Assembly: GCA_041854825.1 (NCBI GenBank) | Contig: JBHACZ010000024.1 | Location: 2,050-66,049 of the forward strand | Length of the DNA: 64,000 bases | Source: Porphyromonas sp. | GTDB taxonomy: Bacteria; Bacteroidota; Bacteroidia; Bacteroidales; Porphyromonadaceae | Direction: 5' to 3' | Part shown: in pieces, positions 5,692 to 58,938 of the stretch | Layout: every line of letters starts with the position of its first letter | Numbering within the stretch: position 1 is the first letter of the stretch | Notes under the pieces: model-generated | Seen by the model: the letters and a program-made list of their open reading frames with translations, nothing else | Databases searched by the model: none | What the model was told of the DNA's origin: nothing | Translations under genes and position numbers: made by a program

Positions 5692-5922
5692 CCCTCTCCC
5701 GAGACCGAATAGAAATACTGCGCGCGCGATCACCCGCGCGCGTACGCGTACGGCAGACTAAGCACCGAAGTGTCACCCGAGTTCCTATTGAAGTGTCAGG
5801 GGAGACCCTATTGAAGTGTCGGGGGAGTCCCTATTGAAGTGTCCGAGGAGTTCCTACTTGAGTGTCCCTCGAGTACCTACTTGAGTGTCGAGGGAGTACC
5901 AAGGTAAGTGTCCGAGGAGTAG
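5692..5922. repeat. Family A array (A1): 7 x 23-bp units plus RY-alternating terminus
   Basis: GTGTC cores at 5770, 5793, 5816, 5839, 5862, 5885, 5908 (exact 23-bp period); unit about CCTATTGAAGTGTCnnnnGAGT; left end is the reverse complement of the terminus seen at 19335-19403. Confidence 0.95.
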
Positions 5923-6043
5923 CAAGGCATGAGGCAGGACACCCACACATTAGGACAGATCATGACACTGGGGCAAACCCTTACGCCCTCTGACATGTTC
6001 TATCTAAGCAATGCCCGACCGTTCGGGCTGTCATCTCACCAGT

Positions 6044-13935: not shown

Positions 13936-14016
13936 GTCTCGCCCCAAGTAATCGCACCCTCCCTAGGGGAGCAAAATATCGTCACCTAGGCAGTCGAACT
14001 AGACCACTCACCCGAG

Positions 14017-14134
14017 ATATTCTTAAGTTCACGTCGTGGTCTGTATAGATCACGACGTGAACTGTACAGACCACGACGTGAATTGTACAGACCACGACGT
14101 GAATTGTACAGACCACGTCGTGATCTGAAGAAAT
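14017..14134. repeat. Family B array (B1): 5 x 21-bp palindromic units
   Basis: CACG(A/T)CGTG cores at 14030, 14051, 14072, 14093, 14114; unit CACGACGTGAATTGTACAGAC; imperfect inverted ends ATATTCTTAAGTT / ATCTGAAGAAAT. Confidence 0.95.
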
Positions 14135-14382
14135 GTCACCCGAAGGAGACTAGTTCTCTCGCCTTAGACATCGAATATCTACCGCCTCGGCACTACCCTT
14201 TGGCTTGAATAGACAGGCATACGCCCCATCGAGAGGCAAACGCTGAAGGAGCAAAGCGGATATTCCCCTTGGCATCCTCTATCACCTCGGGCAACACTGC
14301 CTACATACAGCGCGACCGCACGCCTTCCATGAGAGGAAGCACGTGCGGTCGCGCGCTAATTGAATGGGGATATCCCCGCGTC

Positions 14383-19220: not shown

Positions 19221-19403
19221 TACTCCTCTGACACTTCAATAGAGAGTCCTCCGACACTTCAATAGGGACTCGAGGGACACTTCAATAGAGACTCGGGCGA
19301 GTCCCTATTGAAGTGTCGGAGGACTTATCGATACTCAGTCAGCCGTACGCGTACGCGCGGGTATATACGCGCGCACACGTATTATATATTCGGTCTCGAG
19401 AGG
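19221..19403. repeat. Family A array (A2): 3 units, 1 inverted unit and RY terminus
   Basis: GACAC cores at 19230, 19253, 19276 (23-bp period); inverted unit at 19299-19324; terminus GCCGTACGCGTACGCGCGGGTATATACGCGCGCACACGTATTATATATTCGGTCTCGAGAGGG. Confidence 0.95.
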
Positions 19404-23886: not shown

Positions 23887-24003
23887 AACTTAGGTTTTAT
23901 CACTGAGACGACTTACCCTAAGTCGTCCTCGGGACTTACAGTAAGTCGCCGAGGCGACTTAAGTTGAGTCACTTCGGCGATATACTGTAAGTCATCTTAG
24001 AGG
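23887..24003. repeat. Family C array (C1): about 5 x 23-bp units with 15-bp palindromic core
   Basis: Cores GACTTAnnnTAAGTC-like at 23887 (degenerate), 23910, 23933, 23956, 23979. Confidence 0.93.
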
Positions 24004-28892: not shown

Positions 28893-29016
28893 ATATCTCA
28901 CAAAGATAACAAGAACTATCGAATACCTCTGCGCCCTACCCCCTCCATCTCACACGGCAACAGGTGCAGATCCCCCACGATCCGAATATCACCCCTGTCA
29001 CCCCTCCCCGCAAGGC

Positions 29017-29235
29017 TCTCCCGACACATCACTGAAGTCTCCCTCGACACTTCAGTGATGTCTCCCCCGACACTCAAGTAGACACTCCCCAGACACTCAA
29101 GTAGGGAGTCACTCGACACTCAAGTAGGGACTCGGGTGACTCCCTACTTGAGTGTCCGAGGAGTACCAAGGTGCTAGTCCCCTTACACGTACGCGCGTGC
29201 GTATATACGCGCGCACGCGTATATAATATCGGTCT
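29017..29235. repeat. Family A array (A3): 5 units, inverted unit(s) and 42-nt RY tract
   Basis: GACAC cores at 29023, 29046, 29069, 29092, 29115 (23-bp period); inverted CCCTACTTGAGTGTCCGAGGAGTACCAAGGT; terminus ending ATATAATATCGGTCT. Confidence 0.95.
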
Positions 29236-35283: not shown

Positions 35284-35325
35284 GCATGCCCCGAGAGAGA
35301 ACTTCTTCCTCTCCTCGGGAAGAAA

Positions 35326-35354
35326 TTCTTCAGTTCACGTCGTGACCTGAAGAA
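35326..35354. repeat. Family B minimal element (B2): one core between both inverted ends
   Basis: TTCTTCAGTT-CACGTCGTG-ACCTGAAGAA, with the same ends as B1 and B3. Confidence 0.85.
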
Positions 35355-35397
35355 GTAATAAGGCACTAGCCCCATTTAGGAGCTAGTGCCTTATTAC
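35355..35397 (-). terminator. 16-bp perfect hairpin downstream of fmt
   Basis: GTAATAAGGCACTAGC / GCTAGTGCCTTATTAC. Confidence 0.65.
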
Positions 35398-35448
35398 ATT
35401 GTGTCGCCCGAGGCAAAGGGTTTGCCTGCGGGGCAGAGAGAGGGAGGA

Positions 35449-58349: not shown

Positions 58350-58479
58350 CTATATCAGTCGAGGATCGAGGCAGAGCCAAGGGCAAACACGGCAGTCTGC
58401 TTAGGCAGATCTTCCTCGAGAGACCCTGCCAAGGAAACACCCCTACCGCGAGAAGAGAAAAGACACCAATGCCCGAGCA

Positions 58480-58573
58480 CTTCTTCAGTTCACGTCGTGG
58501 TCTGTACAGATCACGACGTGAATTATACAGACCACGACGTGGTTTATACAGAGCACGACGTGAACTGGAGAAG
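58480..58573. repeat. Family B array (B3): 4 x 21-bp units
   Basis: Cores at 58491, 58512, 58533, 58554; ends CTTCTTCAGTT / AACTGGAGAAG. Confidence 0.95.
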
Positions 58574-58587
58574 TCTTCCTCGAAGCG

Positions 58588-58700
58588 TCCCTAGACACTT
58601 CCTCGATGTGTCCCCCGAGTGCCTACTGAAGTCTCCCCCGACACTTCAGTAGACACTCGGGGGACACATCAATAGGGAGACGAGGGAGACCCCAATAGAG
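58588..58700. repeat. Family A array (A4): about 5 degenerate 23-bp units with internal fold-back
   Basis: GACAC-like cores at 58594, 58617, 58640, 58663, 58686; GATGTGTCCCCCGAGTG / CACTCGGGGGACACATC inverted repeat. Confidence 0.88.
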
Positions 58701-58938
58701 AGGCGAGCCGCACCGCCATAGTCAGACCTTACTATTGCCCCGATACTCCCGCAGTCAGTTACCTAGAGAGCACAGGTGACAGTCATAGAGACGACGGAGG
58801 GCATCGCCGTGAAGGGCGATCAGCCAGACGGCAGATAAGCCTGCCGGAGCTATCCGTTTGATGTTTTGCGCTTTCATATCTTACATAGCATCGGAGCGCT
58901 GGGCGCAGTTAGGGGTAATATCCTTATCTTTGCAATGT

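Follow-up and report, generated by a model that had tools for sequence, protein, structure and literature searches.

The window analysed here is a 64,000-nt stretch (C24:2050-66049) of a 2.0-Mb draft genome of Porphyromonas sp. that comprises 102 contigs (54% G+C) in an assembly 91% complete. The gene types read in the window (TrmD, a RecD/PIF1-like helicase and a YceI-like protein) are ordinary bacterial housekeeping types, and three of its intergenic regions hold copies, termed B1, B2 and B3, of a short palindromic repeat array referred to as family B. B1 lies between the converging 3′ ends of the helicase gene and the YceI-like gene, and B3 follows a tRNA gene at a distance of 180 bp and precedes an array of 23-bp repeats, referred to as family A, by about 15 bp. 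The features are located as follows (window coordinates):

14008-14016, plus strand: B1 left flank motif (TCACCCGAG), similar in type to GTC-ACCCGAG, which adjoins the right end and opens a family A 23-bp unit
14018-14134, no strand assigned: B1, with five CACGWCGTG cores, the unique five-core copy of family B
14018-14029, plus strand: B1 left end (TATTCTTAAGTT), a shortened and degenerate spacer, in inverted repeat with the right end
14030-14122, no strand assigned: B1 array, with cores at 14030, 14051, 14072, 14093 and 14114, 12-bp xxxTGTACAyyy spacers and an exact 21-bp period
14072-14113, plus strand: two identical adjacent 21-mers of B1 (CACGACGTGAATTGTACAGAC twice), read directly from the sequence
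14123-14134, plus strand: B1 right end (ATCTGAAGAAAT)
14135-14146, plus strand: B1 right flank (GTCACCCGAAGG), which together with the preceding GAAAT resembles the start of a family A unit (GAAGTGTCACCCGAG)
35324-35356, no strand assigned: B2, with one core (AATTCTTCAGTT, CACGTCGTG, ACCTGAAGAAGT), between converging genes
58479-58574, no strand assigned: B3, with the canonical four cores, whose centres T-A-A-A are the reverse orientation of the common T-T-T-A

In B1, the left end TATTCTTAAGTT is followed by CACGTCGTG and GTCTGTATAGAT, CACGACGTG and AACTGTACAGAC, CACGACGTG and AATTGTACAGAC, again CACGACGTG and AATTGTACAGAC, a last CACGTCGTG and the right end ATCTGAAGAAAT, and the central bases of the five cores read T-A-A-A-T. 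Tandem Repeats Finder assigned a 21-bp period to this array, and the nhmmer profile matches fall at C24:16068-16181. The inner part of B2 (35326-35354) consists of TTCTTCAGTT, CACGTCGTG and ACCTGAAGAA, whereas the four cores of B3 start at 58491, 58512, 58533 and 58554 and are enclosed by the ends ACTTCTTCAGTT and AACTGGAGAAGT. Directly after B2, at 35357-35400 and between two converging genes, lies a separate inverted repeat with a 16-bp stem (GTAATAAGGCACTAGC ... GCTAGTGCCTTATTAC), which may be a bidirectional terminator-like hairpin. The window contains 12 CACGWCGTG sites (0.57 expected) and 12 end-plus-core matches (0.10 expected). The coordinates and the unit counts (five, one and four in B1, B2 and B3, respectively) given in a preliminary description of this stretch were correct, and the two dyads that it recognized in each unit, the first core CACGTCGTG common to all three window copies and the CCCGAG upstream of each copy (14011-14016, 35290-35295 and 58472-58477) were all confirmed. 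The ends that it called identical are similar only, being TTCTTAAGTT/ATCTGAAGAA in B1 and AACTGGAGAA on the right of B3.

The family B module spans 96 bp and consists of a 12-bp end, four 9-bp CACG-W-CGTG sites, TGTACA-centred spacers and an inverted 12-bp end; each site is also readable as 11 bp (YCA-CGWCG-TGR). A census based on exact and one-mismatch core scans, chained at 21 ± 1 bp, identified 27 four-core copies, one five-core copy (B1), one one-core copy (B2) and no two- or three-core copies in the whole genome. Tabulated in this way, as the preliminary description had proposed, the copies do not form the continuum implied by its series of one, four or five units, as the intermediate lengths of two and three units are absent. 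A profile built from the 27 four-unit copies recovered the same 28 arrays with scores of 71-102 bits, and B2 scored weakly (16.8 bits). The next matches, at 40 bits or less, all belong to other array families, and this drop in score after the 28 arrays indicates that there are no degenerate family B members. Outside the arrays, the genome contains 28 lone CACGWCGTG sites against a rough chance estimate of our own of about 19, and this near-chance count places the lone sites outside the system. All family B copies are intergenic. Divergent genes flank 8 of them, tandem genes 14 and convergent genes 5 (6 counting B2), a mix that roughly corresponds to random intergenic placement. The polarity of the copies relative to gene starts likewise shows no bias (6 versus 4 in tandem contexts).

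To locate the sequence constraint, we oriented the 27 four-unit copies and compared them by column, with eight fixed bases per core. Deviating cells numbered 4 of 864 in the cores, 208 of 972 in the spacers and 121 of 648 (19%) in the ends (cores versus spacers, Fisher p = 2e-56), the mean pairwise identity of the copies being 80.6%, and the core-to-core distance was exactly 21 bp in all 85 of 85 intervals. The near-invariance of the cores could partly stem from recent spread or gene conversion. All four deviating core cells occur in a single copy, C50:7105-7176, in which the same base change is present in all four cores (CACGTCCTG three times, then CAGGACGTG) and the spacers are unlike one another, a pattern that points to either a concerted change within the array or a diverging specificity.

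The modules are also polar. In 19 of the 27 copies, the core centres read T-T-T-A or the reverse, T-A-A-A, indicating that three units share one orientation and the last is inverted (F-F-F-R), a polarity that C50:7105-7176 makes explicit. The spacers are position-specific, with spacer 1 resembling GTCTGTACAGTT, spacer 2 usually being GTCTGTATAATT and spacer 3 resembling AACTGTACAGAC. Together with the F-F-F-R polarity, this specificity indicates that the four-unit module was copied whole, rather than amplified locally. The flanks beyond the ends are weakly conserved over about 30 bp. They form an inverted pair, with AAAT..CTC.TCGGG..ACTTCTTCAGTT to the left and the complement of this sequence to the right, and carry a CCCGAG-type motif and an outward-facing ATTT(G). 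In many copies, this flank reads GAAGTGTCACCCGAG, which is the start of the family A 23-bp unit and accounts for the CCCGAG upstream of the copies. Family B ends abut sequence matching a family A unit start at 14008-14016, 14135-14146 and 58575-58707, as well as in the flanks of most copies. The family A-like flanks, and the family A array within about 15 bp of B3, suggest that the arrays were assembled as mosaics, in a manner that seems BIME-like.

Family B belongs to a large set of short repeats in this genome, which contains approximately 277 tandem arrays with periods of 19-24 bp (window examples are at 5767-5927, 19222-19294, 23905-23961, 29012-29133, 40897-40978, 50698-50766 and 58600-58707). 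The six large families are a 22-bp family (59 arrays), 21-bp family D (44), 23-bp family C (29), family B (28), a 22-bp TATAGTACTATA family (26) and 23-bp family A (23). Arrays of the palindromic 21-bp families mostly have around four units, whereas those of the direct-repeat families differ in length, family A having 2.2-9.3 units per array.

One family B copy outside the window is associated with a gene for a DNA-binding protein. About 110 bp separate the end of the array at C50:43299-43370 from the downstream start codon of huB (C50:42562-43188, minus strand), which encodes a 208-residue protein consisting of a PF18291 (HU-HIG) domain and a winged helix. An operator array is expected to lie in a promoter region and to be accompanied by a sequence-reading domain, and the position of this array, together with PF18291 and the predicted winged helix of huB, fits both expectations. 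TTTG and TAccTTTG boxes, which we take to resemble the Bacteroidetes −33 and −7 promoter motifs, are located between the array and huB. To our knowledge, HU-HIG is a large Bacteroidetes-specific expansion without known function; PF18291 matches 17 places in the present genome. The match of huB to PF18291 scores 65.8 bits (E = 5e-18, Pfam) against a cut-off of 26.2. In an AlphaFold2 model (mean pLDDT 83.8), huB is predicted to adopt an HU fold with an extra N-terminal hairpin, followed by a linker and a three-helix winged helix, and strands 2-8 and 20-25 precede the HU helices. The membership of huB in HU-HIG is thus indicated by both the curated Pfam cut-off and the presence in the model of the extra beta-hairpin specific to this clade. 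Foldseek matches of the model include IHF/HU proteins, the HU-HIG structure 4FMR (among the top matches), ArsR/SmtB repressors and the centromere-binding protein AspA.

The arrangement at huB recurs among its paralogues. Each of the nine HU-wHTH paralogues (205-218 residues) is preceded at this position by a palindromic array of its own, with a period of 21 or 22 bp and 2-4 units (about four in most), and the legible cores (CCAAGCTTTGG, CCAAACTTTGG and CCACACTGTGG) share the template CCA-N5-TGG, for which family B has CCACGACGTGG. The recognition helix of the winged helix is nearly alike in proteins paired with different cores, and no recognition-helix code for the core sequence is visible among 26 HU-HIG proteins, 24 of which have a winged helix. 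huB is 44-49% identical to its own paralogues, which have different arrays, as compared with 30-37% to the same-core proteins of other genera; being nearer to its own paralogues, huB may share its core with the proteins of other genera by convergence. In four close HU-wHTH paralogues (C72, C24:43167, C50:16933 and C73), a 'gCTTGACtt' box lies between the array and a TAnnTTTG box, the one at C24:43167 corresponding approximately to window positions 41020-41035; huB has ATTTG there. HU-HIG genes that lack the winged helix and are glycine-rich or short (C7:2483, C77:25078 and C8:19620) have upstream arrays with a period of 22 or 23 bp, and the array upstream of the C7 gene looks like family C.

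One segment points to copying from the huB locus at the DNA level. This 258-bp segment, C42:29137-29394, matches the huB promoter region with 91% identity, and the match includes the array. Since this segment is wider than the array, copying from the huB locus may take extra DNA with it, which suggests that more than the array can be carried. It lies next to an ABC-transporter ATPase gene, on the 3′ side, and its surroundings contain no HU gene fragment.

When 185,579 species genomes were scanned for two cores in phase, six genomes besides the present one contained such pairs, all of them Bacteroidales. At the loci in these six genomes, the core and the 21-bp period are the same as in family B, the ends and spacers differ, and 12 of 16 loci have four cores. 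Arrays with CACGACGTG cores lie directly upstream of HU-wHTH genes in an uncultured Bacteroides sp. (L034), Parabacteroides distasonis NM39_I3 (L030) and Parabacteroides sp. (L031), and a two-core version precedes an HU-wHTH gene in a fourth genome (L009); in a fifth genome, the best huB homologue is located at a contig start, with the upstream region missing. No two cores at 21-bp spacing occur in 400 other sampled Bacteroidales genomes, and none of 60 congeners has a family B array. Searches for huB homologues retrieved none with more than 49% identity in 40 congeners and none closer than 41% in a large protein database. In 400 kb of a congener without a huB homologue at E <= 1e-30 (G008, L060-L079, 46% G+C), no 21-bp palindromic four-unit arrays are present, and there are 21 short arrays, most of one 22-bp family (AAAGATACAGATGTTTCAAACG and variants, about 14 of the 21). 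A relationship of these 22-bp arrays to the large 22-bp family of the source genome is conceivable, and their presence indicates that a 22-bp period recurs within the genus, unlike the 21-bp palindromic families. A literature search by sequence for CACGACGTG or CACGTCGTG returned only primers and unrelated matches.

Several explanations of family B were considered. The preliminary description envisaged a cassette whose unit number changes by slippage or recombination and could thereby tune the number of binding sites; in the contingency-type form considered here, such changes would be frequent. Some features agree with length change: the two identical adjacent 21-mers of B1 (14072-14092 and 14093-14113), as slippage leaves, indicate that its extra unit is a tandem duplication, and B1 is therefore read as a four-unit element with a one-unit duplication; B2, a single unit between the same type of ends, has the structure that would be expected if the first and last cores of a four-unit copy had recombined, deleting 63 bp, and is most likely a collapsed remnant of a longer copy. 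Identical adjacent units in 2 of the 27 four-unit copies (C35 and C89) further indicate that unit-level exchange occurs. Slippage and recombination are thus the likely sources of B1 and B2, but an expanding and contracting cassette does not fit the census, in which four units are the rule (27 of the 29 copies) and lengths of two or three are absent. Such an absence, jointly with invariant length across strains, had been named in the preliminary description as a refuting outcome, and the census agrees with the first half of it. Related arrays in other genera, like the sister 21-bp families, also usually have four units, whereas a freely slipping array would look like family A of the same genome. 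A tuning of site number by unit number does not fit a module that is dispersed whole, and B1 and B2 are rare length accidents rather than a tuning device. Judged by variation among genomic copies, a phase-variable (contingency) repeat was rejected, and we regard a contingency cassette as very unlikely. At the B1 locus itself, no array is present in congeners, which are distant (65-78% identity in the flanking helicase gene), and of the two short-read contigs retrieved by exact-protein look-ups of the B1 flanking genes, one ends inside B1 at the third core and the other about 150 bp short. Alternatively, family B might act as a nucleic-acid structure, an RNA or single-stranded DNA hairpin or a cruciform, serving, in the manner of REP/BIME elements, as a terminator, an mRNA 3′-end stabilizer or a replication or recombination signal. 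The predicted folds surpass those of shuffled controls (B1, −39.2 kcal/mol, z = −9.8; B3, −35.9, z = −10.4; B2, −8.5, z = −4.1), and both B1 and B2 are located between converging gene ends. However, the halves show no compensatory change, with 82.8% of cells pairing in the 27 copies against 83.8 ± 0.5% when partners are shuffled among copies, which argues that the symmetry belongs to individual sites and not to a maintained hairpin. In 22 of the 27 copies, cores 2 and 3 do not complement each other at their central base (T/T). Eight copies are flanked by diverging gene starts and fourteen by tandem genes, with both orientations represented, no T run follows the element, and a hairpin needs no strict 21-bp phase. 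A hairpin as the main function was rejected, as the strong folding energy is not accompanied by copy-specific covariation; so was a structured RNA or terminator, in view of the lack of helix-maintaining covariation, the location of only 5 of the 27 arrays between converging genes and the absence of an Rfam family match. A terminator-only or promoter-only role was likewise rejected, because the flanking gene orientations look random and there is no polarity bias to gene starts. We therefore consider a structural role in the nucleic acid itself highly improbable.

An origin as a selfish, non-autonomous element of the MITE or Correia type is a further alternative. Here, a transposase acting in trans would read the inverted ends, the huB copy would be one insertion among many, and the palindromes would have no protein-binding role. 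The small size, the lack of coding capacity, the imperfect inverted ends of 10-12 bp and the exclusively intergenic location of about 29 copies (28 arrays and one single-core copy) in either orientation agree with a MITE, as does the narrow host range; a precedent exists in a Porphyromonas genome, the BrickBuilt MITE (PMC4596501), and the ATTT(G) facing outward at each end is reminiscent of Correia and BrickBuilt elements, whose ends bear promoters. Against this explanation, no target-site duplication abuts the family B ends, and the outer boundaries are fuzzy, with conservation fading over about 30 bp. No longer element with matching ends was found, the end pairs at distances of 0.1-4 kb being at chance level in an assembly whose 91% completeness makes this absence less than absolute, and the genome contains no match to the Y1/RAYT transposase (PF01797). 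The variable ends (19% of cells deviating) and invariant cores (0.5%) are the opposite of what recognition by a transposase predicts, and between genera the ends differ while the cores and the four-by-21-bp format persist. Moreover, each of the nine paralogues is paired with a different array family at the same location upstream, which random insertion cannot produce. Membership in MITEs was rejected for want of a target-site duplication, sharp boundaries and a parent insertion sequence or transposase with matching ends, and membership in the REP/REPIN-RAYT class for want of a PF01797 match; overall, we consider a mobile element unlikely.

The explanation that we favour, and regard as probable, is that family B is a phased four-site binding platform for huB that has been copied to about 28 other intergenic sites. 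Invariant dyad sites in an exact two-turn phase have the look of a cooperative binding-site array for a dimeric protein, and the suggestion in the preliminary description that the cores act as protein-binding sites is supported by their invariant sequence, their 21-bp phasing and the operator-like position of one copy before a DNA-binding gene. The anatomy of the module, its census, the constraint on core and phasing, the linkage of gene and array and the domain structure of huB are observations; genomic association is what points from family B to huB, and the binding, stoichiometry, autoregulation, dispersed-copy role and copying mechanism described here are proposals built upon that association. 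In this model, huB, which consists of an N-terminal HU-HIG domain and a C-terminal winged helix, would dimerize and bend DNA through the former. Four dyad sites placed two helical turns apart fall on the same face of the helix, where several huB dimers could bind cooperatively, bending or wrapping about 85 bp. The array before huB would serve as the autoregulatory operator of huB, and the approximately 28 other copies would derive from the huB copy or from one another by whole-module copying. A stable number of four units would follow from the geometry of the complex, from recent copying or from both. B1 would then have gained one unit by slippage, and B2 would have collapsed to one site by recombination. 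The dispersed copies may act as extra intergenic landing pads, with a structural or titrating role or as local roadblocks. The copies show no preference for promoter-bearing intergenic regions, and B1 and B2 lie between gene ends, which makes a classical regulon unlikely.

More tentatively, and as a reading less likely than not, we propose that each HU-wHTH paralogue and its private, dispersed four-site array family constitute a new Bacteroidales protein-DNA 'address' system, in which a dedicated DNA-binding protein that is no transposase co-diversifies with a repeat family that has one copy as the operator of the protein's own gene. The dispersed copies might be paralogue-specific nucleoprotein landmarks (insulators, structural sites or titration sites), or their spread might be helped by the reader, and family B with huB would be a recent, species-specific instance. 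Family B offers a concrete candidate DNA target for one HU-HIG protein, with four invariant CACGWCGTG dyads in an exact 21-bp phase, together with natural one-, four- and five-site variants and about 28 genomic sites for probing. If the binding is confirmed, an orphan protein family would gain a function, the unusual load of approximately 277 short arrays in a 2-Mb genome would be partly explained, and repeat families could arise and spread through a dedicated reader protein rather than a transposase. The computational linkage between HU-HIG proteins and arrays contrasts with the sole HU-HIG analysis that we found in the literature, which argued against sequence-specific binding. In annotations, the appropriate label for these arrays is that of a repeat family, and they should be taken for neither contingency loci nor terminators.

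A comparison with known systems places family B among several established arrangements. The BIME/RIP elements of Escherichia coli and the Correia elements of Neisseria are dispersed, extragenic palindromic mosaics of about 100-150 bp that contain a site for an HU/IHF-family protein and can affect neighbouring transcription. Family B appears analogous, as a dispersed extragenic palindromic mosaic with a candidate site for a protein of this family. However, those elements have one site for the general IHF, whereas family B has four phased sites, a candidate reader that is a dedicated, species-specific paralogue encoded next to one copy, and no RAYT gene in its genome. In ParR/parC, TubR/tubC and AspA, a phased repeat array upstream of a gene is coated cooperatively by the product of that gene, a small dimeric DNA-binding protein that has a winged helix in the case of TubR and AspA. 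The location of huB just downstream of phased repeats is reminiscent of this arrangement, although those systems are single-locus plasmid partition modules with a motor protein, while huB has no partner gene and its array is present at about 28 chromosomal sites. In matS/MatP, SBS/SlmA and NBS/Noc, tens of copies of a specific palindrome are spread over the chromosome and served by one dedicated reader each. Family B would resemble these systems, with huB as the candidate single reader of its dispersed palindromes, but they use single 13-14-bp sites, whereas family B, known from a 102-contig draft, comprises four-site arrays with inverted ends.

The BrickBuilt elements of Porphyromonas gingivalis (Klein et al. 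2015, PMC4596501) are also intergenic, species-restricted and composed of short tandem units between small inverted ends, in tens of copies. Their layout is that of family A in the present genome, and the flanks of family B resemble the family A 23-bp units. BrickBuilt consists of 23-nt direct repeats in variable number with a leader and a tail, unlike the 21-bp, palindromic and phased units of family B that are fixed at four; no sequence similarity between the two was seen, and a link of BrickBuilt to a DNA-binding gene is not reported. Family B was hence not assigned to BrickBuilt, its units being dyad-symmetric and only its flanks resembling a family A unit. The HU-HIG clade, which includes a wHTH subclade, was described as unlikely to consist of sequence-specific transcription factors and as having no conserved genomic linkage (Burroughs, Kaur, Zhang and Aravind 2017, PMC5499826). 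The present paralogues agree with that description in that huB matches PF18291 and the proteins form a species-specific expansion of fast-diverging paralogues, and differ from it in that every wHTH paralogue here has a private upstream palindromic array, some of these arrays, including family B, being scattered over the genome. Family B thereby combines the features of dispersed palindromic repeats, such as BIME/RIP, Correia and BrickBuilt, with those of the operator- or centromere-like arrays of small DNA-binding proteins.
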